Virus record (IMG/VR): IMGVR_UViG_3300012971_000019
Coordinates: 1 to 64,000 of that record
DNA from: a virus
Lineage: Duplodnaviria; Caudoviricetes
Direction: 5' to 3' (one strand)
Length of the DNA stretch: 64,000 nt
The position numbers and the translations under genes were made by a program. This document shows, in pieces, positions 15,436-29,634 of the stretch; position 1 is the stretch's first letter; every line of letters begins with the position of its first letter. The notes under the pieces are model-generated. The model saw nothing but the letters and a program-made list of their open reading frames with translations. It did no database searches and was not told where the DNA came from.

Positions 15436-16002
15436 ATGCCGTTCTATCCGTCTGAAACCATCGCCAAGGTGCTCAAGCTTACGCCGCGCCACGTCACCCG
15501 GCTGGCCGAGCAAGGAGTGATCCCGCTGCCGAACTCGGACGGCAAGTACGATCTGGTGCCGTGCGTGCAAGCCTACATCGAGTTCCTGCGCATGCGGCAC
15601 GGCGGCTCGAAGTCGGTGAAGTCGGCGCAGAAATTTTCCGCCGAACGAGCGCGCCTCTACGAGATGAAGGCCGACATCGCCGAGGTCGAGCGTGCGCGCC
15701 TGGTCGGCGATCTCGTCTCGGCCGAGGAAGTCGAAACGGTCTGGACTGATCTGGTCGCGGTCGCCAAAGCCAGGATGCTCGCGATCCCATCGAAGATGGC
15801 GCCGCGGTTGGCGTTGATCTCCAGCCCGACGAAAATCCGGGAGTTGCTCGACAGTGAACTATCAGCCGCACTCGGCGAGCTTGCAGGAGCTGCCGAAGTC
15901 GATCTCGATCCGGGCCAAGAGTACCCGCGTCGTCGAAATGGTGTGCACCGCGCTAAAGGCGTGGTCGCCGCCGCCAAAGCTGACAGTAAGCCAGTGGGCT
16001 GA
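15436..16002 (+). CDS. terS: terminase small subunit (Nu1-like)
   Basis: N-terminal HTH (IAKVLKLTPRHVTRL...GKYDLVPCVQAY), ERARL..KADIAE coil, ARMLAIP. Confidence 0.88.
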   Translation: MPFYPSETIAKVLKLTPRHVTRLAEQGVIPLPNSDGKYDLVPCVQAYIEFLRMRHGGSKSVKSAQKFSAERARLYEMKADIAEVERARLVGDLVSAEEVETVWTDLVAVAKARMLAIPSKMAPRLALISSPTKIRELLDSELSAALGELAGAAEVDLDPGQEYPRRRNGVHRAKGVVAAAKADSKPVG

Positions 16003-17914
16003 CGTTTATCGCGAGCTGTCGATGGAAGCAGCGGCCGAGCCCGGACGGTGGGTGACGGCGCGCGCTGAGTACCAACGCGGCATCATGGACTCGTTCTCGG
16101 ACCCGACGATTCACACGATCGTGGTGCCGAAGGCCTCGCAGGTCGGTTTCACCGAATGCGTGCTCAACGCGCTTGGGTTCATGGTGCATCAGGACCCCTG
16201 CCCGATCCTGATCCTGCAGCCGACCATCGACGCGGGCGAAACCTGGTCGAAGGAACGGCTGGCGCCGATGGTGCGCGACACGCCGGTGCTGCGCGGGCTC
16301 GTGCGGCAACCGATCAGTCGGTACACGGAAAATTCGCTGCGCTTCAAATCGTTCCCCGGCGGCTACATGGCGATCGTCGGCTCGAACGCGCCCGCGGGCC
16401 TGGCAGCGCGGCCGATCCGCATCGTGTTCGCCGATGAGGTCGATCGCTTCAAGACCTCGGCCGGCACCGAGGGCGATCCGCTGCAGCTCGCCGCGAAGAG
16501 ACAGACCACCTATTGGAACCGCAAGACACTGCTCGGCTCATCGCCGGGGCGAAAGGCCACATCGGTGATCTGGCGCGAATGGCTGAAGTCCGATCAGCGA
16601 CGGTTCTACGTTCCCTGTCCGCAATGCGAAGAGAAGCAAACGCTGCGCTGGGAAAATGTGCGCTGGGATAAAGCGCTCGACGGCGAGAAGCGTGCCGTGG
16701 GCGCGCAGTACTGGCCGCACAAGCCCGAGACCGCCTATTACGTTTGTGAGCACTGCGGCAATCCGTGGGACGATGTCGCGCGCTGGGAAGCGGTGTCGAA
16801 GGGCGAGTGGCGCTCGACCGCGCCGTTCAACGGCACGGCGGGGTTTCACATCCCGGGCTTCATCTCGCCGTGGCTGACGCTGACCGACATCGTGGTCGAG
16901 TTCCTCAAGGCGAAGGACGTTCCCGAGCTGCTGCAGGTGTGGGTCAACACCGTGCTCGGCGAGCCGTGGGAGGAAGCGGCCGAGGTCGTGGAGTCGTCGT
17001 CGCTGGTGTCGCGCGGTGAGCAGTACGGGCCCGAGCTGCTGCCCGATGGCGTCAAGATGATCGTGGCCGGCGTTGACGTGCAGGGCGATCGACTCGAATG
17101 CCAGGTGCTCGGCTTCGGTGTGCGCGAGGAGTGCTGGGCGATCGAGTACCACGTGCTGCCCGGCGATCCGGCGCAGCGGTTGCTGTGGGACGAACTCGAC
17201 GAGCAATTGCTCAAGACCTATCCGACCGAGGATGATCGGACGCTGCGCATCAGCGCGACCTGCATCGACACCGGCGGCCATCATGGCAACCAGGTGTTGG
17301 CATTCTGCAAGGCGCGGCGTGGGCGCAAGGTGCTCCCCATCAAAGGCGTGAGCGGCGCACGCCCGATCTGGCCCAAGCGCGAGAGCAAGGCGAAGAAAGA
17401 CTTCTATGTCGTCGGCGTCGATACCGCGAAGGACGCGATCTACGGGCGGCTGCGTATCCAGAAGCCGGGCCCGGGCTACATCCACTTCCCGGTCGGCACC
17501 GACTTCAATGCGCAGTATTTCGAGCAGCTCACCTGCGAGCGGGTGATCACGCGCTACAGGCTCGGGCATCCGGTGCGGGTATGGGAGAAGCCGGCCGGGG
17601 CCCGGAATGAAAGTTTCGACACCTTCGTCTATGCCCTGGCCGCCCGCCAGGCGCTGCCGGTCCGCTTCGAGCCGGCGCCGGTTCCGATCGAGCCCGCGCC
17701 CGTGGCCAATCGCCCGGCTGAGCCGCCGGTAAAGTCGCTGTTCGGTCCGCCGCCGCCCCAGAGGGTGCCAGAACCGCCTACGGAGCCTCATCCGCTGGCC
17801 GTCCGTGCGCCAGAACCGCCGAAGGCACCCCAGGCCGCCCCCGGCATTCCGCATCGCCCGTGGCGCCCGCAAGGGCGCTGGAGGCGCACCATGCGATCAC
17901 AGTACATGAGCTGA
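15938..17914 (+). CDS. terL: terminase large subunit (lambda gpA family)
   Basis: PPPKLTVSQWAD, KASQVGFT Walker A, VFADEVD Walker B, GVDVQGDR nuclease, RNESFDTFVYA; Pro-rich tail. Confidence 0.97.
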   Translation: MVCTALKAWSPPPKLTVSQWADVYRELSMEAAAEPGRWVTARAEYQRGIMDSFSDPTIHTIVVPKASQVGFTECVLNALGFMVHQDPCPILILQPTIDAGETWSKERLAPMVRDTPVLRGLVRQPISRYTENSLRFKSFPGGYMAIVGSNAPAGLAARPIRIVFADEVDRFKTSAGTEGDPLQLAAKRQTTYWNRKTLLGSSPGRKATSVIWREWLKSDQRRFYVPCPQCEEKQTLRWENVRWDKALDGEKRAVGAQYWPHKPETAYYVCEHCGNPWDDVARWEAVSKGEWRSTAPFNGTAGFHIPGFISPWLTLTDIVVEFLKAKDVPELLQVWVNTVLGEPWEEAAEVVESSSLVSRGEQYGPELLPDGVKMIVAGVDVQGDRLECQVLGFGVREECWAIEYHVLPGDPAQRLLWDELDEQLLKTYPTEDDRTLRISATCIDTGGHHGNQVLAFCKARRGRKVLPIKGVSGARPIWPKRESKAKKDFYVVGVDTAKDAIYGRLRIQKPGPGYIHFPVGTDFNAQYFEQLTCERVITRYRLGHPVRVWEKPAGARNESFDTFVYALAARQALPVRFEPAPVPIEPAPVANRPAEPPVKSLFGPPPPQRVPEPPTEPHPLAVRAPEPPKAPQAAPGIPHRPWRPQGRWRRTMRSQYMS

Positions 17915-17929
17915 TCTCGGAGCTGACCA

Positions 17930-18172
17930 ATGGTCTCGATGAATCCTCCGCTCGACCCGACGACGGCGCCATCCGGGTTTACGCTGGCCGAAAAGATAGC
18001 GCTCGAACAGGCCATCGCGTCCGGGACGCTGCACGTGTCCTATAACGGCAAGAGCGTGACCTATCGCTCACTCGACGAGCTGCGGCTGGCGCTGCACATG
18101 GTCAACAATTACCTGTTCGGCCCGCCGACCCGCACGTTCCTCACCCGCACCAGGGGCTGGAAGGGCCTCTAA
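17930..18172 (+). CDS. head-tail joining protein (gpW family)
   Basis: ALEQAIASG...VSYNGKSVTYRSLDEL between terL and portal. Confidence 0.85.
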   Translation: MVSMNPPLDPTTAPSGFTLAEKIALEQAIASGTLHVSYNGKSVTYRSLDELRLALHMVNNYLFGPPTRTFLTRTRGWKGL

Positions 18173-21100
18173 GTGGACGCTCGCACGAAGGACCCCGCCG
18201 GCATGATGTTCGGCGACGGGGTGAATTCGGCGCGCATCCGGGTTCGGCCGAAGGGCGCGGTGACGAGCGCCAAGGCGCAGCAGGATTGGGCGTGGCAACC
18301 AGGTGGCCCGTGGTGGTCGCCGTCGCAGCAGGGCTTCCAAGCCGCCAACGCGCGCCGCCGGCTGTCGCAGTGGCTCCCGAACAAGGGCACCATCAACACC
18401 CTGGTGACGCAGGGCGGCGAAATCCTGCGCGACCGCGCCCGCGACATGGTGCGCAACAACCCGCACGCGGCATCGGCGGCGGACTCCTATTGCGGCAACC
18501 TGATCGGCACCGGCATCCGGCCATCGTCGCTGATCCCCGATCCCACGCTGCGCACCGAGGTCAACAAGCTGTGGGCGCAATGGGCGTGCGAGTGCGACTC
18601 CGATGGCATGGTCGATTTCTATGGCCTGCAGGAGCTGGTCGCGCGCGCGTTGTTCGAGGCCGGCGAGGTGTTCCTGCGCTACCGGCCGCGTTCGATCGAG
18701 GATGGGCTGTGCGTGCCGCTGCAGCTCCACGTGATCGAGTCGGACATGCTCGATTTCTCGTACAATCTGCTCGCCGAGAACGGCAACCTGATCATGAACG
18801 GCGTCGAGTTCGACAACAGGCACCAACGCGTCGCCTATCATTTTTGGCCGTATCACCCCGGGCAGATCATCATTACGCCGCTGCGCGATTTCCGTTTTCG
18901 GGTGCGCGTGCCGGCCGAGGAGATTCTGCACATCTTCAAGCCGCGGCGGCCCGGTGATGTGCGCGGCGTGCCGATGGTGGCCTCGGCTCTGGTCAAGCTG
19001 TTCATGCTCGATCAGTACGACGACGCCGAGCTGGACCGTAAGAAAGTCGCGGCGATGTTCGCCGGCTTCGTCAAGTCGCCGCAGCCCGAGGAAATGCTGA
19101 TCCAGGATCAGAGCGGGCCGGCGTATCCGTGGGAGCCTGACGAAGGCCTGGTGACGCTGGAGCCCGGGACGATCCAGACGCTACTGCCCGGCGAGGACAT
19201 CACGTTCTCGGCGCCGGCCGCGGTCGGTGGCGATTACGAGCCGTTCCAGTATCGGCAGCTCCTGCCCGTGTTCCAGGCGATGGGCGTGCCGTACACCTTG
19301 GGTGCCGGCGATCTGCGGCATGCGAACTACAGCTCGTTGCGTGGCGCGATCGTCGAGTACCGCCGCCGCCTGGCGCAGGTGCAGAACAACGTCATCGTCC
19401 ATCAGATGTGTCGGCCGATTTGGGAGCGGTGGCTGCGCGATGCGGTGCTCTCGGAGTCGATCGACATCCCGGACTTCGCCAAAGACCCGCGGATGAATCT
19501 CTCCGTGAGATGGATTCCGCCGAAGTTCGAATGGGTTGATCCGCTCAAGGATCAGCAAGCCGAGAAGCTTGCAGTCGATGCCGGCTTCAAGTCGCGCTCT
19601 GACGTGATCGACGAGATGGGCGACGATCCGCTCGACACCGACATGCGGATCAAGCAGGACCATCTCCGCGAAAAGGCGCTCGGTCTCGACTTCCCGGCGG
19701 GCACCGGCAAAGGCAAGCCCGGTGCGCCCGGCCAGCCCGGTCAGCCAGGCCAGGAAGAGGGTGGCGGCAAGGAGTTTGACGGCTCCGACATCAAGGAGAT
19801 GCTCCAGGATCAGGGCATCGATCTCGACGACGATGTGCTGGAGAAGCTCACCGCCTCGATGCGCGAGAGGATCGAGGCCTTCGAGGAATCGCAACATCCG
19901 CGGGTGCCCAAGGGTACGACCGAGGGCGGACAGTTCACGAAGGCGGGCGACGGGGTCGAGACCGGGTCAAAAAAAAAATCAAGCGAGCCCGGCCTGGTCG
20001 GCGACGGCGATCAGCGTCAGACTGTCCCGTTCGGATTAGGACTCCCCGAGGGGTCCCCGCTCCAGAAGGCGATCGGCGCCGGCTCGGTCGGCTATGGCGA
20101 TGCCGAGAAGGTCGCCGAGCAGATTGCCAAGGCGGCCGGCGCCAACGTGCTGGCGACCCATCACGTGGTCGGCGGCTGGACCGACCCCTCGACCGGCGAA
20201 TATTCGTCGGAGCCGACCCTGGTCGGCGAGTTTCACGGGAAACCAACTGACGCGACTTTTGCGGCCGAGGCCATCGCGCATGTGCTCGGCCCGCAGAAGG
20301 AGGTGTGGGTCGTTCGCGATGCCGAGGGCTTCCCGGCCGCGCGCGATCTCCGTCTCGACATCATCCCGACCAAGCCTGGGGTGACGCCGCAGCAGCTCGC
20401 CGAGGTGGCGCGCAAGGTCGATCCTGAGCTGCTCGCCGGCTTCACGCAGACGGTTGACGGCGAGGGTCGCACCGGCATCACGCTGTTGATCCCCGAGGGC
20501 ATCGCGAAGCGCCCGCGTGCGGAGACGACCTCGGTCATGATCAACCCGATGGGCTCGATCCAGCCGATGGAGGTGCTGGTCAATCCGCGCGAGCGCGACA
20601 TCAAGGACTTGCTCAAGAACACGGACTTTGCCGAGGCTCGGGTGATCCGCGATGACGCCGGCAACCTCTATGTGTGGGACGCCTATGAGGCGATCCACCG
20701 ACCGGTGGCAAAGGCGCTCGGCGTCGAGCTGACCAAAGAGAATTATCTTCTCAACACCGACATCTGGACGCTGGTGAATGGCAAGCTCGTCAGCTCGGGC
20801 GTCGGATCGGATTGGATGAAGGAAAAGTTGCCGCGCCGCTGGATCGAGGAAACCCACGCGGTACCCAAGGGCCCGGCGACGATCGCGGATCGTGCCGATG
20901 CGGCGGTGATGAAGCTCGCGGGCGCGCTGGCCGATGCCGGGATTGATGCCGACGTGTTGCCGACCGCGGCGATCGTGGATAAAAGGATCGGCGATGCGAA
21001 AGATTGGCGGGGTTACAGTTCATCCCTTGAACGCGAAGCTGGGGCACATGCCGTCGCGGCGCTCGATGATTATCGTGCCCGGCTCGGCGAAAGCCTCGCC

Positions 21101-23515
21101 CAAGGCCGAGGCGTCCCAGCCTTCACCGAAGACCTCCGAGCCCTCGCGCGAGCCGCCCGACCGCAAGCCGAACCGCTGAAGGTCGCGGCACGGTTTTTCG
21201 CCTTTGATCCTGAGCAGCCGCGCGCACCCAAGGGATCACCCGAGGGCGGCCAGTGGACGAAAGACGGCGAGGAAGGCCTTTACAACGGCCCGACGCAGCC
21301 GGCTTATCACGGATCGAAGCAAGCCGGGTTTGAGCGGTTCACCGTTCCCGATCCGAAGAACGAGTTGATGATCGATCGAGCGATCGGTGTGCATGTCGCC
21401 AAAGACCCGAAGATGGCCGAGTATTTCACCAAGCTTGGTCCAGGCGATACGCGGGCACCGGGTGAAACCCACAAAGGCGGAATTTACGAGCTACGCATTC
21501 CGACTGACGAGCATTTGCTGGAGGTCGAGCAAAAGCACCTGCGGTGGGTCAAAAATCCGGCCGAACCGAAAAAGCCTGGCAACGTCGAGATCGATCAGGA
21601 CAAGATTGCGCGGCTTGTTTACGGCACGGCGTTTCGTGAGGATACCGATCTTTTCGCACGGCAGATCGAGCGAGATTTGCACCTCACCACAGAGGAAGCG
21701 AAGCACGGCGCTGAAGCGCTTGCGCACGATCAACCATGGACGAGCCCTCGGTTTGGCTCGACATATAAGAGCATCGACGAATATCTGGCCGATCGACCGA
21801 GCACGATTTTCGACACTGAGGATCGCGTGAAAGCGGTGGAGTTATTCCACGAGCAGATGGAGCGTCACGGCTATCTCGGGCTCAAGTACATCAACACGGC
21901 GCCGATGGAGACCGAGGGCATTGATGATCCGATCGCCTATGTGATCTTCAATCCGCGCAACATCCGCCACGCATTCACTGGCGCACGGGCGCGCATGCCG
22001 CTCGAAATTTTCGCCAAGGAGTTCGACGAGGCGCAACATCCGCGCGGCAAGACCACGCCCGAGTCGACGCCCGGAAGTTTCGCTCCCGAGGAAGGCGGCG
22101 GCGGCGTTGATCTCGTAGCCGGCCGCGTCGTTTTCCAATCCAAGTCCTCGATCCCGCCGACGCAGAAAGCCGCGACCACGCCGGCCGAGACCGAGGCCGA
22201 GGCGCGCAAGAGCGTCGAGGAATACGCCAAGGCGGCGCGTGACGCCGGCATCAATGTGCTGGTCGGCGGCCAGGGTCATCCGCTGCAAATCTCGACGCGC
22301 CTCCCGTGGGGCGTGAAGGGCAACGTCGAGAATGGCGATGAGGTTTATCTGCATCCCGATCTCGATGCATTGCGCCGCGAGCCGGAAAAGTTCGCGAGCG
22401 ACATGGCGCTGTTCAAAAATGCCGAGGACTATCCCGGTCTGCGACCGGAGGAAACCGATGGCACACCCGAGCAGATTGCGCGCAACGTGATCGACCGGCT
22501 GAAGTCGAACCTGAAATTCCTGTACGAGAACATGCCGACCGACATCCGCGATCGATCGGCCGACTGGTACGCAGGCGCGCGACGCATCGTCGATCGCAAG
22601 GCGCGGCAGTATGGGCTCAACGATGCCGCGGTTGCCGGGGCCTATGCGGCGCTCAGTCCGCAAAAGGATTGGTATCAGAACGTCTACCTGGGCGATCGGC
22701 TGATCGACATCTACCAGACGCAGCAGGACACGGCGTGGTCGCCCGAGATGGAAAAGACCGCCCGTCAAATCTGGAAAACCAAGCCGCAGAAGGCAGTCCT
22801 GAAAACCGTGCGCGGCAAGAAGCTCGGCGAGCTGACCGATCCGGTGCAAAAGGCCGAGTGGATTCGAACCTTTGACGAAACCTATAGCGACCGTTCCTTC
22901 AAGATCGTCACGCCGGAAGGCGAAGAGGACGGCTATGTCAAAACCAAAGCGGGCGAGAATTGGTCGGCGGCTTGGCAAACCAACGTGAACATCGCCAATG
23001 CGGTGATCGCGCTCGAATCGGGTGGCGATCGGAAGATCATCAGCCAGGCGATGGGCGCGGCGCACAAGGTGCGCTCGTTCTACAACAACTTCCTCGACCC
23101 GTACTCGACCAACGATGACGTGACGATCGACACGCATGCGACGGGGGCCGGATGGCTCCAGCCCTATGCCGGATCATCGACGGCGGTGCTGCACAGCCTG
23201 CACAGCAGTCCTCAGAAGGGGGACGCGCCGAAGAATTTCCGCAACGCGAGCGAATCGGCGGCCACCGGCAATTCCGGCACCTATGCGATCTACGCGACCG
23301 CGTACCGCGAGGCCGCGCACGAACTCGGTCTTTCGCCGCGCGCGCTGCAATCGCTCACCTGGGAAGCGCAGCGTGGTCTCTATGGCCGTGAGAGCAAGAA
23401 AGCGCTGGAGCGCACCAACGCGATTTGGACCGACTACCACAACGGCGTGATCGATCTCGATGAGGCGCGCCGCCGGGTCGTGAGCAATGGCTACCGGCCA
23501 CCGGATTGGTACTGA
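18173..23515 (+). CDS. lambda-family portal (aa ~1-510) fused to ~1270-aa tagged multi-effector extension
   Basis: Portal motifs RDRARDMVRNNPHA, PLQLHVIESD, RGVP, DLRHANYSSLRG, WIPPKFEWVDPLKD. The frame continues through three tag motifs and ART-like and HhH-like domains. Confidence 0.92.
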   Translation: MDARTKDPAGMMFGDGVNSARIRVRPKGAVTSAKAQQDWAWQPGGPWWSPSQQGFQAANARRRLSQWLPNKGTINTLVTQGGEILRDRARDMVRNNPHAASAADSYCGNLIGTGIRPSSLIPDPTLRTEVNKLWAQWACECDSDGMVDFYGLQELVARALFEAGEVFLRYRPRSIEDGLCVPLQLHVIESDMLDFSYNLLAENGNLIMNGVEFDNRHQRVAYHFWPYHPGQIIITPLRDFRFRVRVPAEEILHIFKPRRPGDVRGVPMVASALVKLFMLDQYDDAELDRKKVAAMFAGFVKSPQPEEMLIQDQSGPAYPWEPDEGLVTLEPGTIQTLLPGEDITFSAPAAVGGDYEPFQYRQLLPVFQAMGVPYTLGAGDLRHANYSSLRGAIVEYRRRLAQVQNNVIVHQMCRPIWERWLRDAVLSESIDIPDFAKDPRMNLSVRWIPPKFEWVDPLKDQQAEKLAVDAGFKSRSDVIDEMGDDPLDTDMRIKQDHLREKALGLDFPAGTGKGKPGAPGQPGQPGQEEGGGKEFDGSDIKEMLQDQGIDLDDDVLEKLTASMRERIEAFEESQHPRVPKGTTEGGQFTKAGDGVETGSKKKSSEPGLVGDGDQRQTVPFGLGLPEGSPLQKAIGAGSVGYGDAEKVAEQIAKAAGANVLATHHVVGGWTDPSTGEYSSEPTLVGEFHGKPTDATFAAEAIAHVLGPQKEVWVVRDAEGFPAARDLRLDIIPTKPGVTPQQLAEVARKVDPELLAGFTQTVDGEGRTGITLLIPEGIAKRPRAETTSVMINPMGSIQPMEVLVNPRERDIKDLLKNTDFAEARVIRDDAGNLYVWDAYEAIHRPVAKALGVELTKENYLLNTDIWTLVNGKLVSSGVGSDWMKEKLPRRWIEETHAVPKGPATIADRADAAVMKLAGALADAGIDADVLPTAAIVDKRIGDAKDWRGYSSSLEREAGAHAVAALDDYRARLGESLAQGRGVPAFTEDLRALARAARPQAEPLKVAARFFAFDPEQPRAPKGSPEGGQWTKDGEEGLYNGPTQPAYHGSKQAGFERFTVPDPKNELMIDRAIGVHVAKDPKMAEYFTKLGPGDTRAPGETHKGGIYELRIPTDEHLLEVEQKHLRWVKNPAEPKKPGNVEIDQDKIARLVYGTAFREDTDLFARQIERDLHLTTEEAKHGAEALAHDQPWTSPRFGSTYKSIDEYLADRPSTIFDTEDRVKAVELFHEQMERHGYLGLKYINTAPMETEGIDDPIAYVIFNPRNIRHAFTGARARMPLEIFAKEFDEAQHPRGKTTPESTPGSFAPEEGGGGVDLVAGRVVFQSKSSIPPTQKAATTPAETEAEARKSVEEYAKAARDAGINVLVGGQGHPLQISTRLPWGVKGNVENGDEVYLHPDLDALRREPEKFASDMALFKNAEDYPGLRPEETDGTPEQIARNVIDRLKSNLKFLYENMPTDIRDRSADWYAGARRIVDRKARQYGLNDAAVAGAYAALSPQKDWYQNVYLGDRLIDIYQTQQDTAWSPEMEKTARQIWKTKPQKAVLKTVRGKKLGELTDPVQKAEWIRTFDETYSDRSFKIVTPEGEEDGYVKTKAGENWSAAWQTNVNIANAVIALESGGDRKIISQAMGAAHKVRSFYNNFLDPYSTNDDVTIDTHATGAGWLQPYAGSSTAVLHSLHSSPQKGDAPKNFRNASESAATGNSGTYAIYATAYREAAHELGLSPRALQSLTWEAQRGLYGRESKKALERTNAIWTDYHNGVIDLDEARRRVVSNGYRPPDWY
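19969..19978 (+). repeat. A10 homopolymer within the portal-effector junction
   Basis: TCA AAA AAA AAA TCA, ~30 nt after tag 1, in a high-GC gene that otherwise prefers AAG. Confidence 0.9.
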
Positions 23516-24638
23516 TCCGCTCGTCGCGTGGATGCGCGCCAACAGCGTTGCAGTCAATCGCCGGAACTACATCGAGCTGAACTGGGGCGAGGTCCCCAAG
23601 CCATGGACGGTCGAAGACGAGAGCGAGCTGCCGGCCGAGCTGCAGGAGTGGTCGATCTTCGAGCGCGATGGGCCCGGCATTCGACTGCGCGCCGATCCGG
23701 TGACGAAGGCGCCGATCACCGCTGCCTGGATCGATCCGTTCACGGCCGAGTTCGACGAAGCGAAGCACCCGCGCGAGCCGAAGGGCACGAAGGAAGGCGG
23801 GCGGTGGACGAAGGGCGCGAACGAGATCGTCCATAATTACGAGGAGGCGACCAAGAAGCGCCATCACGGCGCGACCAGGCCGCCATCCTCGACGGCGCCG
23901 GAACATGAGCAGTGGCGACAGAAGGGGAAACCGGCAGACCTCGACCGCCAGGCGCAGGAGGCGGTCGTGCAGCTCGGTGGCACGCATCGCGAATATGGCG
24001 TTCTCGTGCAGAAAGGCGGCGATCTTTCCGAGGGCGCGCAGATCACCGTCATTCCCGGTGGAGAGCACAATGTTCCAGTGTCGGACGAGCTGCATGACGA
24101 GATGACGGCGATACCGCATGACTTTCACCACAATCATCCATCGGGCCTGCCGATCTCGACGCAGGACATCAATTATCTATCGAAATCGCCGAATGTCATG
24201 ACGGTGCATGCGCATTCCGGCACCGGCAATGGCACGACCTACTCGGTCTCGATCGCGGGGCGAACGGCCAAAAATCCGACCGCTGTATGGCCGACAAAGA
24301 TGGCCGGGATCATGCGGACGATTGCACGACGCGTGAGTGATCGAGGCTATCCGCTTGGTCCGCTGGGCCGGGCGGCGGTACGCCTCGATGACGAACATGC
24401 GACGACGACGGAGATCAACCACGCGCTCACGAAAATCGATCAGCATGCATTCAACATGGCGGCCGATAAGGCTGGGCTAATCCATTACGCCTACACACAT
24501 TCGCCAGAGGACGAGAAGTTTTTCGAGAAATTTGCCGATGAGCTGAAGGCGCAGGCCGAGATCGCGGACGACACATTCAGCAAGGTTCTGGCGTCACGCA
24601 AGATCGACCCGACCAAGCTGGCGAAGGAGCGTGAATGA
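23487..24638 (+). CDS. small N-terminal module + tag + JAB/MPN-like domain
   Basis: DPLVAWMRANSVAVNRRNYI...ELPAELQ module; EFDEAKHPREPKG...GGRWT tag; REYG...HHNHPSGLPISTQD. Confidence 0.8.
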   Translation: MATGHRIGTDPLVAWMRANSVAVNRRNYIELNWGEVPKPWTVEDESELPAELQEWSIFERDGPGIRLRADPVTKAPITAAWIDPFTAEFDEAKHPREPKGTKEGGRWTKGANEIVHNYEEATKKRHHGATRPPSSTAPEHEQWRQKGKPADLDRQAQEAVVQLGGTHREYGVLVQKGGDLSEGAQITVIPGGEHNVPVSDELHDEMTAIPHDFHHNHPSGLPISTQDINYLSKSPNVMTVHAHSGTGNGTTYSVSIAGRTAKNPTAVWPTKMAGIMRTIARRVSDRGYPLGPLGRAAVRLDDEHATTTEINHALTKIDQHAFNMAADKAGLIHYAYTHSPEDEKFFEKFADELKAQAEIADDTFSKVLASRKIDPTKLAKERE

Positions 24639-25738
24639 GTCTCCTGGTTGACCCACCGCATGAGCTGTTCGGCTCCGAGGCCGAGTGGCGGGCGTTCCTC
24701 GATGAGATGCACGAGGCCTGTGAGGACGGCGAGGACGACGCGCGCGAATACATCGCCATGGCCGAGCGCGTGCTGGCCGAGCGGCGCGACAAGCGGCCGG
24801 CGGTCAAGGTGAGCGCGCGTGGCGAACACGCCGCAGCTCGGGCGGCTCTATTGGCGACCGTCGCCTTCGAAGAATCCGAGCATCCGCGTGTACCGAAGGG
24901 AACGCCCGAAAAGGGTGGGCAGTTCACGAAGAAGGGCGAGGGCGGCGGCGGTGCGTCCGAGCGCAGGGTCGGGATACCGGGTCTCGGTGAGGAGCTGGCT
25001 GAACCGCTTCAGCCTCCGACCACGAAGACGACTGCCGACGATTTCAAGAAGGCCGGCATCGAACTCCTGATGCATCCGCGCGCGCAGCAAAAGTTCCTCG
25101 CCGATTGGAACGAGCGCGTCGATCAACCGCCCGAGCAGTTCCGCAAGGAGTTCCTCAACGGCTTGAACGGCACGATGGAGATCGGCGTAGAGGGCGATGG
25201 CGCGTGGACCCTGAAGGGAGACCTGCGCACGTCTGATGGCGAGAAGATGGGCAGCTATCGACGCGAGATCGATTTCAAACGCAAGGAAGCCGTTGACGAT
25301 TATTTTCGACTGGAAGAGGAGTTCACCGGGCTTTCGATCGGCAAAAAAATGCTCGCCGGAAACATCGAGAAGTACCGCGAGCTGGGTATCCAGTGTGTGG
25401 ACCTCACCGCCAATGTCGATGTCGGCTCTTACGCGTGGGCCCGATACGGCTTTGCGCCGTCGAAGAAGTCATGGGCTTATCTGCGGGACCATTTGCGCGC
25501 TCTCGTCCAGGAGGGCGCCGACGAAAACGAGAAACCAATCATCAAGGATCAGGGCGACCAGCAGCGCTTGCTCGAACTGCTCAAGTCGGACGATCCCAAG
25601 ACGCTGTGGGCGATTGCCGATTCGAAATACGGTAAGGCGTTGCTGACCGACAATTTTTGGGCTGGTCGCCTCGATCTCAATGATCGTGACACCATGCGGC
25701 GGTTCAACGACTACATAGCGAGGGCGTACCGTGCCTGA
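24635..25738 (+). CDS. small N-terminal module + tag + GNAT acetyltransferase-like domain
   Basis: LVDPP...EAEWRAFLDEM module; AFEESEHPRVPKG...GGQFT tag; DYFRLEEEFTGLSIGK...LTANVDVGSYAWARYGF. Confidence 0.82.
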   Translation: MSLLVDPPHELFGSEAEWRAFLDEMHEACEDGEDDAREYIAMAERVLAERRDKRPAVKVSARGEHAAARAALLATVAFEESEHPRVPKGTPEKGGQFTKKGEGGGGASERRVGIPGLGEELAEPLQPPTTKTTADDFKKAGIELLMHPRAQQKFLADWNERVDQPPEQFRKEFLNGLNGTMEIGVEGDGAWTLKGDLRTSDGEKMGSYRREIDFKRKEAVDDYFRLEEEFTGLSIGKKMLAGNIEKYRELGIQCVDLTANVDVGSYAWARYGFAPSKKSWAYLRDHLRALVQEGADENEKPIIKDQGDQQRLLELLKSDDPKTLWAIADSKYGKALLTDNFWAGRLDLNDRDTMRRFNDYIARAYRA

Positions 25739-27641
25739 ACGGGGGGAGCTTTTCTACCTCGACGCTGCCGGCAAGCAGCAGGACGCCAAGCTGCACGAGG
25801 AAATCCTCGCAGGCGATCACGACGATGCGCTTGAGGTCACGCGCGAGCGCCTACGCGCCATGGGATGGGCTGATGACGTGATTGCGGATTTTCTCGGTGA
25901 GAACAGGCCGAGCGCTCGATCGCGCGGAGCTGCGGCGCGAGCCGCCCGCCTGGCGGCAGTTGCCTTCGAGGAGTCTCAACATCCGCGTGGGCCGAGCGCG
26001 CCTGGTCACAGCAGCGGCGAGTTCAAGAAGAAGGGGAACGGCGAAGCCGGTGCTGGCGGCGGCGAAGAGAAGCAGGTTGGCGTGGATGTCGGCGGCGACA
26101 AAAAGGCCTCGCCCGAAGTCCCTGAGAGCCTGGTAAAGGCGATCGAGGATCACGTCGAGGCGATGGCGGGCCGAGGGAGTCGCGCCGGTGCGGCCGACCT
26201 GTCGAAATGGCTGTGCCTCACGCATGGCGATGAAATCGAAAAGCTCGTCGATTCGTATAAGCAGGAGGAAGCGACGACAGTCGGCACCACCCCTCGCTTC
26301 GGGCCGATCCTTCTGCTGCACAAGGGCGATACGAAAAAGGGCGTGCCCACCATGTGGTTGCTCACATGGAGCAAGAACGACATCACCAGCATCCATGACC
26401 ATCTCGAATCCGAGGTCGGCGTTTCGGTGTTGCGCGGCAACGTCGGCAATCGCGCGTATAGTACCGGCGAAGGGTATCTCGACAAAGCGAAAAGCAAGGA
26501 AGGTTTGGAGTCGCGTTTTGGCGAACAAATCCTAAAGCCAAAGCAAACCGTACAAATTAAGTCGCCCTACATTCACGAAATGTATGGCACCGCCGAGTCA
26601 GGCCAGAAGCGCGACATCACCGTGCACGCGTATTATCCGCCGCTCTCGCACATGCACTATTTCAGGAAAGACAAGGACGGCAAGCTGCACTATGCCGGTG
26701 ACTGGGACGAGGATCGCGAACCACAAGACTGCATGATCGAAACCGGCGAGCCGACGAAGGGGCCGTCGAAAGCAACCGCCAGCATGGGCTTTTGTCCGTG
26801 CTGCAGCGTCAAGCGCGAATTGGCCAGATGGGGTGCGGATGCACCGCGTCACGAGCCGAGTGCTCGATCCCGGCGGGCCGAGGGGCGAGCTGCGCGCCTG
26901 GCGGCAATCGCGTGGGATGAATCGAAGCACAAGCGCGGCAAGACTTCACCCGGAACGACGCCGGGGAGCTTTGCCCCGGAGGGCGGCGGCGAGGAAGGCG
27001 GCGGCGAGGCCAAGCGCGAAAAGGCCGCGCCAGAGCGCAAGACGACTGCGGTCAAGCCGTCGATCGCCAACGCCGACAAGATCAAGGCCGCCTGGGTTGC
27101 GGCGTCACCGCACACCTCGGTCGATAGCCTGGTCGAGCATGCGCCCGCCGATCAGGGCGAGCTGGTGACCCTCGCGCAGCAGATCGAGCGCGACACCGGC
27201 GCCAAGCTGCACAATCCTGGCATCAAGAAGCGGGAGCGGATCGAGGAGAAGCTCAAGCTCGCCGGCCGCAAGCCGCAGTCGATCTCCGACGCCGTGCGCC
27301 TCGGGTTCGAGGTCTCATCGCCCGAGCAGGCCGACGCGATCATCGATCGGCTGAAGCAAAAATATCTGGTGGCCGACGAGGGCTGGCAGATGAAGCCGGT
27401 CGGCTACTTCGATCGCAAGGTCACCTTGCGCTTTGCCGATGGGATGATGGGCGAGGTGCAGCTCTGGCCGACCATCATGCTGGTCGCGAAGCAGACGAAG
27501 GGTCACGCACTCTACGAGCGGGCCCGGACGTTGCCGCCAGGGCCGGCGAAAGAAGAAGCGAACCGGGAGATGAGCAGCTTCTACCACGGCCTCGATGTGC
27601 CGAGGGCCTGGAAGGACGAGCTGGGCAGGTTCGGGAGCTGA
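25731..27641 (+). CDS. small N-terminal module + tag + cysteine-dioxygenase-like cupin + tag + RelA/SpoT synthetase-like domain
   Basis: WLLTW..NDITSIHDH...YIHEM...TVHAYYPPL cupin; KKRERIEEK...ISDAVR...GYFDRK...EVQL...GHALYE. Confidence 0.85.
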   Translation: MPERGELFYLDAAGKQQDAKLHEEILAGDHDDALEVTRERLRAMGWADDVIADFLGENRPSARSRGAAARAARLAAVAFEESQHPRGPSAPGHSSGEFKKKGNGEAGAGGGEEKQVGVDVGGDKKASPEVPESLVKAIEDHVEAMAGRGSRAGAADLSKWLCLTHGDEIEKLVDSYKQEEATTVGTTPRFGPILLLHKGDTKKGVPTMWLLTWSKNDITSIHDHLESEVGVSVLRGNVGNRAYSTGEGYLDKAKSKEGLESRFGEQILKPKQTVQIKSPYIHEMYGTAESGQKRDITVHAYYPPLSHMHYFRKDKDGKLHYAGDWDEDREPQDCMIETGEPTKGPSKATASMGFCPCCSVKRELARWGADAPRHEPSARSRRAEGRAARLAAIAWDESKHKRGKTSPGTTPGSFAPEGGGEEGGGEAKREKAAPERKTTAVKPSIANADKIKAAWVAASPHTSVDSLVEHAPADQGELVTLAQQIERDTGAKLHNPGIKKRERIEEKLKLAGRKPQSISDAVRLGFEVSSPEQADAIIDRLKQKYLVADEGWQMKPVGYFDRKVTLRFADGMMGEVQLWPTIMLVAKQTKGHALYERARTLPPGPAKEEANREMSSFYHGLDVPRAWKDELGRFGS

Positions 27642-27802
27642 GGCCAGCGTTCCTCGAACGCTTGCCTGCTCATGACGGCGGCGTTGTAGCCGACCTCGGA
27701 CGAATCGATCTCGTGCCATTTGCCATCGACGAACCACCAGGCCTCACCGTGGGTGTAGAGCGTGGGGTTGCCGTCGAGGCTCGCGTAAACGATGTCAGCC
27801 AT
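27581..27802 (-). CDS. 73-aa aromatic-rich protein convergent on and overlapping the RelA/SpoT domain; putative immunity protein
   Basis: MADIVYASLDGNPTLYTHGEAWWFVDGKWHEIDSSEV...FEERWPQLPNLP looks protein-like; only minus-strand gene in the head module. Confidence 0.65.
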   Translation of the reverse strand: MADIVYASLDGNPTLYTHGEAWWFVDGKWHEIDSSEVGYNAAVMSRQAFEERWPQLPNLPSSSFQALGTSRPW

Positions 27803-27861: not shown

Positions 27862-29634
27862 ATGCCGATCCCGAAGCCAGGCGGTGGCGAATCCGAAAGC
27901 GACTACGTCAGCCGGTGCATGGAGAAGCTCGCCGACGATTTCCCCGATCAAGAACAGCGGGCGGCCGTTTGCTACCGCACATACCGAGAGGCTAACGCCA
28001 TGCCGAACATCACTGCCCAGGAAGAGGACGACGAGGACGAGCGCCGCCGTCGCGCCCGCGCCCGCAAGGAGGACGATGACGAAGGCGACGACAACGACGA
28101 TGATGATGATGACGAAGAGGAAGGCGACGACGAGGAGCGCGAAGATCGGCGCCCGCGGCGTCGCGGCGGCGAGCGCGAGAGCCAGGCCGGCAACGGCTAC
28201 AGCGCCCGTGCGCCGCGGCCCTGGTTCCAGATGAAGGCCAAGGACGACAAGTCGACCGCGGAGGTGCTCATCTACGATGAGATCGGCCCCGGGATGTTCG
28301 GCGGTGGTCTGTCCGCCAAGGACTTCCACAAGGAGCTGCAGGGGCTGGGCAAGGTCAAGGAGATCATGCTGCGGATCAATTCGCCGGGCGGCAACGTCTT
28401 CGACGGCCTTGCGATCTACAACATGCTCAAGGCTCATCCGGCGCGCATCACCGCCAAGGTCGATGGTGTGGCGGCGTCGGCGGCGTCGCTGGTCGCCATG
28501 GCGGCCGACAAGATCACCATGCCGAAGAACGGGTTCCTGATGCTGCACAAGCCTCAGGCGATGGTCATGGGCGATGTCGACGACATGCGGGCGATGGCCG
28601 ACGATCTCGAACGCATGACCAAAGTTTTCGCCCAGTGCTATTCGGCACGCTCGAACGGCAAGAAGACGGCCAAAGAGATGACGGTGCTCATGGCCGAGTC
28701 GCGGTTGATGGATGCGACCGAGGCGATGGCGTTCGGGCTCACCGACGAGGTCGCGGACCCGGTGAAGATGACGGCGTGCTTCGACATCCGCAAGCTGCCG
28801 ACGAGGGCCGCCCAGGCGCGCATCCAGGCCGAGTTCACTGTGGCGACCGGCTGGGGCATCCCGAAGGACGACGACGAGGATGAGGACGAGAACGTGATCG
28901 AGACCGGCTCGGTCGATCCGTTCGACGACACGGCGTTGCTTCCGGTCGATGAGAACGGCCTGATGGTGCCGCCGGCCAAGGGCGGCAAGAGCGTCGAGGA
29001 GTCGTACGAGAGTGGGCTTTCGACCCCGCCGTTCAACGATCTCGGCAGCGAGCCCGAGGATTTGGACACCGAGTCATCGTCGCTCGACCTTCCGAGGAAG
29101 GGCGGCAAGGGAAAGAGGAGCGCGAAGATGAAGGCGCAGGATGACGATCTCTTCGGCACGGGCTCACCGGGCGATGCCGGCAAGGCGACCAAAAAGGTGG
29201 CGCCGAAGGAGTACGACGACGAGGAAGAGGACGAGGAGTCCGAGCTGTTCGGCGAGGGCGCGGTGAGCACCGAGCGGGCGAGCAAGGCCTCGCGCAAAGC
29301 GGTCGAGGCGCTCCGCGTTGCCGCTGGCGTTCGGCCCTATGGTCGCAAAGAGATGAAGGAGACGATGGAGCTGTGCGCGCTCGCTGGCGTATCGGCCAAG
29401 GTCGCGCACGAGTTCATCGCACAGAAAACGCCGGTCGCCCAGGTGCGGCGCGAGCTGATGGACCGGCGTGTGCTCCGCGACGCCGAGACCCAAATCCTTG
29501 GCCGTCAGCCGGCCTACGACGCCGCGCGCAGCGAAAAGGAATCACAGAACTCTTGGCAGAAAGCGATCAACGAGGTGAACGCAAGAGTCGTGATGCCCGA
29601 GGTGGGGAAAACAATGATCGATCGTTCAAACTGA
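27862..29634 (+). CDS. ClpP-type (S14) prohead protease with N-terminal extension and C-terminal scaffold
   Basis: LIYDEIG, INSPGGNVFDGLAIYN, GVAASAAS (Ser), MLHKP (His); acidic linkers; helical C-terminal scaffold. Confidence 0.95.
   Translation: MPIPKPGGGESESDYVSRCMEKLADDFPDQEQRAAVCYRTYREANAMPNITAQEEDDEDERRRRARARKEDDDEGDDNDDDDDDEEEGDDEEREDRRPRRRGGERESQAGNGYSARAPRPWFQMKAKDDKSTAEVLIYDEIGPGMFGGGLSAKDFHKELQGLGKVKEIMLRINSPGGNVFDGLAIYNMLKAHPARITAKVDGVAASAASLVAMAADKITMPKNGFLMLHKPQAMVMGDVDDMRAMADDLERMTKVFAQCYSARSNGKKTAKEMTVLMAESRLMDATEAMAFGLTDEVADPVKMTACFDIRKLPTRAAQARIQAEFTVATGWGIPKDDDEDEDENVIETGSVDPFDDTALLPVDENGLMVPPAKGGKSVEESYESGLSTPPFNDLGSEPEDLDTESSSLDLPRKGGKGKRSAKMKAQDDDLFGTGSPGDAGKATKKVAPKEYDDEEEDEESELFGEGAVSTERASKASRKAVEALRVAAGVRPYGRKEMKETMELCALAGVSAKVAHEFIAQKTPVAQVRRELMDRRVLRDAETQILGRQPAYDAARSEKESQNSWQKAINEVNARVVMPEVGKTMIDRSN

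Follow-up and report, generated by a model that had tools for sequence, protein, structure and literature searches.

A tag-delimited array of enzyme modules on and behind the lambda-type portal of an uncultured soil phage

The first 64,000 nucleotides (nt) of the virus record IMGVR_UViG_3300012971_000019, hereafter the window, derive from an uncultured, lambda-like soil phage; the full record measures 81,049 nt and is rated 91% complete in IMG/VR. The locus examined here, known from sequence alone, is a modular array of tagged enzyme modules placed on and behind a lambda-type portal protein. It comprises a portal open reading frame (ORF) of 1,780 amino acids (aa) at 18173-23515, followed on the same plus strand by orf2 (383 aa, 23487-24638), orf3 (367 aa, 24635-25738) and orf4 (636 aa, 25731-27641). 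Each of these three overlaps the 3' end of the ORF in front of it, and they are probably translationally coupled. A preliminary description of this DNA had placed three ORFs behind the portal, between a W-like gene and the prohead protease gene, and this arrangement is confirmed. A lambda-family portal makes up the first 545-570 residues of the long ORF: the core (aa 1-569, 18173-19879) belongs to phrog_21 and matches PF05136 Phage_portal_2 with an E-value of 1e-103 (347 bits against a cut-off of 32.9), the match spanning portal aa 61-404 and model positions 2-354 of 354. The long in-frame extension announced earlier is present, but it measures ~1,210 aa past the first copy of a short repeated peptide, the tag, rather than ~1270 aa.

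The tag consists of ~22 residues, [WF]-D-E-S-K-H-P-R-x-P-x-G-x3-G-G-x-[FW], with an Ala-rich helix before it and a Gly-rich linker after it. After an initial regular-expression search, 16 copies taken from the window and from three relatives were used to build a hidden Markov model (HMM); in the entire 81-kb record it detects exactly seven copies, with E-values from 7e-21 to 3e-14, every one of them on the plus strand within 19850-26993. Three lie in the portal ORF, at aa 570, 1011 and 1284: tag 1, of type A (AFEESQHPRVPKGTTEGGQFTK, 19850-19957, E 4.8e-19), tag 2 (FDPEQPRAPKGSPEGGQWTK, 21191-21277, E 2.7e-14) and tag 3, of type B (FDEAQHPRGKTTPESTPGSFAP, 21989-22102, E 2.6e-17). One further copy stands behind the leader of each free gene, namely tag 4 in orf2 (23718-23828, E 9e-20), tag 5 in orf3 (24833-24946, E 6.6e-21) and tag 6 in orf4 (25932-26045), and tag 7 is internal to orf4 (26883-26993). 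The earlier proposal that seven modules are each opened by the same short tag is therefore borne out, no copy being found elsewhere in the record. Two flavours can be distinguished, ...HPRxPKGTxEGGQFTK and ...HPRGKTxPxTTPGSFAP. The DNA copies in the window are mutually only 63-88% alike and share no long exact stretch, which indicates that conservation acts at the protein level.

The same peptide is widespread outside this phage. Searched against 1.84 billion cluster representatives, the tag profile matches 1,353 clusters at E<=1e-3 and 228 at E<=1e-10, in proteins of up to 7,334 aa with up to 18 copies at a median spacing of 260 aa. Phage_Mu_F is present in 14 of the 31 top matches, and the others of this set carry ADPrib_exo_Tox, Acb1, ART-PolyVal, GNAT, Zeta_toxin, InPase, CDO_I or Fic, while a lambda-type portal occurs in only 2 of the top 150 tag clusters. 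The ADP-ribosyltransferase (ART)-like, GNAT-like and cysteine dioxygenase (CDO) modules of the window recur in other tag-bearing proteins, several of which contain MuF. Across 494 instances, drawn from 148 clusters of <50% mutual identity, the arginine is invariant (100%), as is H/Q (100%), with the proline at 96% and the glycine at +6 at 91%; the first tag falls within the first 40 residues in 70 of the 148 proteins. A search of the literature on the motif and on the processing of polyvalent proteins returned no description of the tag, and no motif or linker of this sort is mentioned in Iyer 2017 or Jamet 2017. A tblastn search of GenBank phages with the 26-aa tag gave nothing at E<=1, the query being too short for this to indicate absence. 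A Tyr-Ala cut site in front of the tag was considered and rejected, as it is absent from the window tags and from the 494-instance profile. In an unrelated Mu-like phage (L020), an 890-aa gene that fuses Zeta_toxin, AAA_33 and Peptidase_S78_2 (16335-19007) directly follows a 2,078-aa tag array, so that cargo is there joined to the prohead protease itself.

Three modules are fused to the portal. Module 1 (aa 593-1010, 19949-21202) matches no Pfam or NCBIfam family and, of the seven domain guesses made in the preliminary description, is the one still without a known family; the other six gained support. It is conserved at 75-86% in relatives, equal to the portal core. An AlphaFold2 (AF2) model of modules 1 and 2 together, based on a five-row alignment, is of low confidence (predicted local distance difference test, pLDDT, 41.6). 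Other large tag-bearing proteins (P0157, P0136 and P0238) contain two or three copies of the central part of module 1 (module aa ~150-310, about 20400-20880), which makes the module itself a composite. Module 2 (21269-22021) is an ART-PolyVal-like ADP-ribosyltransferase with an insertion of ~80 aa. The earlier guess of an ART-like domain is supported by hhalign, which gives 99.6% probability (E 1e-23) against a 66-domain ART-PolyVal profile when the extended alignment is used, and 92% when the alignment is limited to close relatives; controls remain below 1%.

Module 3 (22091-23512) is a member of Pfam DUF7178 (PF23802, E 3e-23), for which no description was found in the literature. Its AF2 model, based on a 33-row alignment, reaches a pLDDT of 91 and a predicted template modelling score (pTM) of 0.90. 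In an exhaustive VIA structure search with this model, the top 22 rows are all HhH-GPD (helix-hairpin-helix) glycosylases or the queuine-salvage enzyme QNG1. VIA-align gives QNG1 (7ugk) Z 9.0 with a root-mean-square deviation (rmsd) of 4.9 over 230 aligned residues, and the Tm1821 OGG Z 8.7 (rmsd 3.9, 185 aligned); the next rows stand at Z 8.4 and Z 7.5 and include AGOG, OGG1, MagIII, EndoIII and MutY, such Z values being middling for helical proteins. Foldseek of the model against the PDB found no significant match and listed only AGOG, at a probability of 0.3. Within the family, V-T-I-D-T-H is invariant and an upstream H-K is nearly so; we take these to sit where EndoIII has its hairpin Lys and its catalytic Asp (V-D-T-H). 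The predicted model thus shows the fold that defines the HhH-GPD superfamily, two helical lobes with a helix-hairpin-helix and a conserved Asp behind it, and the earlier suggestion of an HhH glycosylase-like domain agrees with this assignment. A search for related loci with the DUF7178 alignment returned only two close loci. In three proteins without the tag (P0009, P0011 and P0015), DUF7178 is fused to PF06381 Phage_portal_3, which implies that portal-cargo fusion arose in more than one portal family.

The three free genes share a common layout, in which a leader is followed by a tag and a module. In orf2, an 88-aa leader and tag 4 precede a RadC/JAB-like module (23820-24635). Its motif, E...HNHPSG(x4)SxxD, is invariant in three relatives and has a loop one residue shorter than the RadC JAB signature, E...H-x-H-x(6-7)-S-x-x-D. 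No Pfam match was obtained for orf2, and a search of homologous proteins gave no relative of similar length. The JAB assignment proposed earlier is consistent with this metal-binding motif and with an hhalign probability of 94.5% to RadC-like modules of other polyvalent proteins, which were picked by motif and one of which carries PF04002. In orf3, a 77-aa leader and tag 5 precede a GNAT-like module (24935-25735). Here, hhalign to a GNAT profile reaches 90.9% over 44 columns, covering motif A only, with an extended alignment, and 0.8% with two sequences; among Atlas structure neighbours, a GNAT-named cluster has a template modelling (TM) score of 0.68 and classical GNATs 0.38. The GNAT guess thereby gains some support and is the weakest of the domain calls. 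In orf4, a 78-aa leader and tag 6 precede a CDO-like cupin (26034-26912), and tag 7 precedes a Tas1-like RelA/SpoT module (26982-27638). The cupin, already read as cysteine-dioxygenase-like, matches Pfam CDO_I (PF05995) at E 4.9e-10 (39.6 to 41.7 bits, the cut-off being 23) and also finds CDO chains among PDB sequences at E 1e-3; a C-P-C-C motif lies behind it, just before tag 7 (26760-26800, orf4 aa ~345-360). The RelA/SpoT-like module has no Pfam RelA_SpoT match at E<=10. A three-relative profile matches Tas1 (6ox6), a (p)ppApp synthetase toxin, over 123 residues (E 4.4e-4, 23 bits), in line with the earlier guess. Sequence and profile searches of the PDB found no match for the portal extension, orf2, orf3 or the ART-like module, and NCBIfam and PHROGs yielded no usable name for any cargo module. 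Each leader type keeps its gene position whatever module precedes or follows it; a role of the leaders as neutralisers of the preceding effector was rejected on account of this constancy.

The comparison with related contigs from other metagenomes is informative with regard to both the fusion and its modularity. Fused portals of 1,793 aa and 1,497 aa are found on L004 and L015, respectively, and those of L001 and L002 are cut by contig ends; the portal core is 76-84% identical in L004, L001 and L002. As independent metagenome contigs carry the same in-frame fusion, it is not an assembly accident, which speaks against the possibility, raised in the preliminary description, that the extension is an assembly artefact. 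The content of the array differs by whole modules. In L002, which lacks module 1, the portal runs straight to the ART module; L015 lacks the ART and CDO modules, and L004 lacks the GNAT module. Conversely, an additional tag-headed module of ~600 aa, for which no Pfam family is on record, lies behind the RadC-like module in L004 (8202-10100) and L015 (15640-17546) and is absent from the window. Every module breakpoint among the relatives falls at a tag, and the tag itself may change type, since the tag in front of the ART module is of type A in the window and of type B in L004. The relatives therefore show variable modules behind a constant tag, as had been anticipated, and not an invariant locus. 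In all of them the array lies between the portal and the prohead protease. L015 also encodes an ArdA anti-restriction protein (PF07275; 4410-4922, minus strand) in the early region upstream of the terminase.

A further conserved element lies at the junction of portal and cargo. Eight codons past tag 1, a tract of ten adenines (A10; TCA AAA AAA AAA TCA, 19969-19978, plus strand) forms a candidate slippage site and is the only A/T run of >=8 in the 64-kb window. L004, L001 and L015 carry the identical tract. The frame entered after the loss of one A ends at a TAG 19-21 codons on, and this off-frame TAG is preserved through the use of rare Leu codons, TTA or CTA, with shares of 0.6% and 2.6% among Leu codons; AAA represents 21% of Lys codons. 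The tract may thus serve programmed slippage, giving short and long portals.

At the other end of the array, a convergent 73-aa gene (27581-27802, minus strand) overlaps the 3' end of orf4 by 61 nt. Intact copies of this gene, with 67-74% identity, are present in L004, L015 and L016 and in every case follow the RelA/SpoT-like module. A predicted complex of the 73-aa protein with this module scores 0.84, against 0.01 for the best control; the mark applied to such scores is reached by 58 of 80 solved complexes and by 2 of 110 mismatched pairs. In the complex model, at least 93% of the contacts agree, the partner has a pLDDT of at least 80 and the interface covers the GYFDRK strand. The 73-aa protein has no sequence relative in the PDB, so that a memorised solved complex is a less likely source of the score. 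We consider this protein a candidate immunity protein, predicted to bind the RelA/SpoT-like module. In L015, and with the same layout in L016, a 52-aa ORF (L015 17543-17701), absent from the window, lies between the gene for the RadC-like and extra modules and the GNAT gene, and could encode another small partner protein.

The preliminary description had seen no MuF domain in this array and had taken the lambda-type portal as its carrier. The first part holds by sequence, as neither PF04233 nor PF06152 matches at E<=1 anywhere in the 81-kb record, and the anchor is indeed the portal, but module 1 may itself be a carrier. hhalign against a 28-sequence MuF profile gives 1.4% for module 1 and 0.3% for orf2, and a divergent MuF in either was rejected for lack of sequence or profile support. 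In P0274, which adjoins the head genes of an HK97-type phage, module 1 is followed by a tag and by an ADPrib_exo_Tox (ART) domain; it there occupies the position that MuF holds in MuF-tag-toxin proteins, and the notion of a carrier-free array may therefore be wrong. From its position, module 1 looks like a candidate carrier domain. The broader idea of a separate, MuF-independent kind of system does not hold, because >1,300 clusters, mostly of arrays anchored by MuF, use this very tag and modules are common to both. Nor is an effector array on a portal new in itself, effector fusions to portals having already been reported (Iyer et al, 2017; PMC5512222).

The surroundings of the array are those of a lambda-type head module, all genes being on the plus strand. 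A lambda gpA-type large terminase gene (TerL; GpA_ATPase and GpA_nuclease) occupies 15854-17914 and is followed by an 80-aa gene (17930-18172) without a Pfam match, which is assigned to the lambda W position solely because it lies between the gpA terminase and the portal. Behind the array, 27862-29634 encodes a ClpP-type prohead protease (CLP_protease, E 1e-27; head maturation protease PHROGs) with a C-terminal scaffold-like region, in the position of lambda C/Nu3; a gpD-like decoration gene (HDPD) and then a gpE-like capsid gene (Phage_cap_E) lie 3' of it. The order is thus gpA, W, portal (B), cargo, ClpP protease (C), gpD and gpE, and is the same in L015. Within its N-terminal 110 aa, the protease has an extreme run of acidic residues, DDDEGDDNDDDDDDEEEGDDEE, between Arg-rich stretches (27862-28190, aa 50-110), and its scaffold-like C-terminal half holds a second acidic region.

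We infer encapsidation, cleavage, slippage, injection, toxicity and immunity from this arrangement; given that the fusion is at the C-terminus of a portal within a head module, encapsidation, processing and injection are the most economical reading. In tailed phages, the C-terminus of the portal faces the capsid interior. With the portal C-terminus inside the capsid, the fused modules would be built into the procapsid along with the portal, and the free cargo proteins would enter by means of their leader and/or tag. The tag would act as a loading and/or processing signal, the modules would separate in the head, exit with the DNA and act on the infected cell. Slippage on the A10 tract would probably generate both short portal subunits of about 620 aa and long ones of 1,780 aa, limiting the cargo per dodecamer. 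The RelA/SpoT-like module would be toxic, and the convergent 73-aa protein would restrain it in the producing cell. Polyvalent proteins, portal fusions included, have been proposed to be packaged and injected (PMC5512222), and the polyvalent protein gp47 was detected by proteomics in phi24B virions (bioRxiv 10.64898/2026.04.10.717836). We think it fairly probable that the locus is a portal-anchored member of the tag-delimited phage head-cargo (polyvalent) proteins, working in the manner proposed. A bolder proposition, which we regard as conceivable and rather doubtful, is that the tag is a universal, portable head-cargo signal of tailed phages: recognised, irrespective of anchor or protease type, through a component that all of them share (portal, HK97-fold shell or scaffold core), it would bring any protein behind it into the capsid and mark the cuts, and A10 slippage would additionally turn a fraction of the portals into 130-kDa cargo carriers.

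Several results weigh against the head-cargo reading or limit parts of it. The GNAT call draws on 44 aligned columns, and the leaders of orf2, orf3 and orf4 (77-88 aa) are of three mutually unrelated types. As 116 of 120 DUF7178 polyvalent proteins lack the tag, tags are not required for polyvalent proteins generally, and tag-delimited arrays form a distinct subclass. The protease beside tag arrays is Peptidase_S78_2 in three of four other contexts and ClpP-type in the window; as two or more unrelated families of prohead protease accompany the tag, the case for one cleavage site specific to a single protease is difficult to make. The 494-instance profile holds, beyond the tag itself, no conserved residue pattern that would mark a cut site. 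The Atlas structure search with orf2 lists MuF-labelled clusters at TM 0.50-0.59, so that a cryptic MuF-like fold is possible in this protein. With respect to slippage, the relatives that share the A10 tract are only ~13% diverged in DNA around it, which makes its conservation suggestive and not decisive, and both L002, in which module 1 is missing, and P0191 fuse the portal to cargo without any A-run.

The last two fusions also bear on the view that the long portal is an artefact or a minor by-product, the gene ending ~20 codons past the tract because the true sequence is A9 or A11 or because slippage is the rule, with the cargo made separately or hardly at all. The homopolymer does coincide exactly with the portal/cargo junction, a conserved TAG ends the shifted frame, and homopolymers are error-prone in assemblies. 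However, portals joined to cargo without an A-run escape this explanation, the window, L004, L001 and L015 all carry the A10 in frame, and module 1 is as conserved as the portal core, from which it follows that module 1 is expressed and under selection; we hold this view to be very improbable. It could instead be surmised that the array is produced late in infection, or by a prophage, and stays unpackaged, acting within the producing cell or outside it, for instance as an interbacterial toxin set released at lysis, the role initially put forward for MuF polymorphic toxins, or as enzymes that condition the producer, the tag being a secretion, processing or regulatory signal with no link to the capsid. 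A predicted immunity partner for the RelA/SpoT-like module is a hallmark of polymorphic toxins that endanger kin, and MuF toxins are treated as polymorphic toxins by Jamet et al. 2017 (PMC5576092). Such a scenario nevertheless appears unlikely to us, as a covalent fusion to the portal, which functions only in the capsid vertex, is hard to explain without encapsidation; the constant location between portal and prohead protease in all relatives speaks against it in the same way, as does the placement of tag arrays elsewhere in head modules beside portal, MuF and protease genes. Another proposition denies the tag any signalling role and regards it as a structural linker or junction, possibly a short homology for cassette recombination comparable to VENN and PT-TG. 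Its place between a helix and a Gly-rich linker, the termination of all module gains and losses at tags and the independence of tag type from the module behind it, as exemplified by the ART module, would suit such a role. DNA copies as divergent as those in the window, with no long exact stretch, are on the other hand a poor substrate for homologous recombination; the near-complete invariance of R, P and H/Q across the 148 clusters is unexpected of a mere linker, and in almost half of these proteins the first tag comes so early that there is nothing to link. We accordingly assign a low probability to a purely structural tag.

If the head-cargo reading is correct, its consequences extend beyond this phage. 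Injected phage proteins, and the way in which they are selected, are known for only a handful of model phages. A tag that marks cargo would make injected anti-defence and takeover enzymes readable from sequence, and a universal loading signal, if real, would add a new type of signal for capsid loading that could also serve to package foreign proteins. The present locus offers a clean test case, as it combines a portal anchor, no detectable MuF, whole-module differences between relatives, a predicted immunity partner and a slippery tract suggestive of dose control. Moreover, DUF7178 is present in well over a hundred large polyvalent proteins, for which the predicted fold provides a candidate DNA glycosylase activity, and a thiol-dioxygenase-like cupin is now placed among candidate phage cargo.

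The closest known relatives of this array are the polyvalent proteins (Iyer, Burroughs, Anand, de Souza and Aravind, 2017; PMC5512222), which likewise assemble unrelated enzyme domains on one polypeptide among late virion genes and whose repertoire overlaps with ours in ART-PolyVal and, going by the predicted assignments, in RadC, GNAT and RelA/SpoT. At least two disparate domains per polypeptide, the mark of this class, are found here twice, with portal, ART-PolyVal-like and DUF7178 domains in one protein and CDO and RelA/SpoT-like domains in another, and PBECR, 2H and InPase domains fused to portal domains were already reported in the same work. In contrast to what is described there, the present array extends across a lambda-family portal and three more genes, a single conserved peptide, unmentioned in the paper, stands before every module, and an HhH-GPD-like glycosylase fold and a thiol-dioxygenase cupin occur that are absent from its text, whereas the zincin metallopeptidase that it proposes as the processing enzyme was not found here. 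The MuF polymorphic toxins (Jamet et al, 2017; PMC5576092) are similar in lying directly after the portal and in carrying a variable toxin module behind a constant part, and the MuF-Apk2 toxins (PMC12226406) pair a RelA/SpoT-type pyrophosphokinase toxin with a small protein-binding immunity, a pairing that in our case is a prediction. MuF-bearing proteins also contain the same tag; they differ in that the window has no MuF by sequence, its anchor being the portal, possibly with module 1, and in that seven modules replace a single toxin tip. The capsid targeting sequence of T4, found in IPI-III and Alt, is a short N-terminal peptide of ~10 residues that directs cargo into the prohead core and is removed by the prohead protease. 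It provides a working model for the tag, which differs in being unrelated in sequence, also internal and repeated, and found together with two or more protease families that are unrelated to each other. The VENN and PT-TG pre-toxin motifs are found a single time per protein, in secreted toxins of the T5SS/T6SS type (secretion systems V and VI), at the boundary at which toxin cassettes are exchanged. They share with the tag the character of a short conserved motif at a cassette boundary, whereas copies of the tag precede every module and occur solely in phage head-gene contexts. Polyvalent proteins, portal-effector fusions and MuF toxins with RelA/SpoT-type tips and immunities are thus already known. 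What stands out is an undescribed and widespread tag in a portal-anchored setting without detectable MuF, with whole-module differences among close relatives, and what is new is the conserved A10 tract at the junction, the conserved gene for a 73-aa candidate immunity protein and the model-based assignment of a fold to DUF7178.

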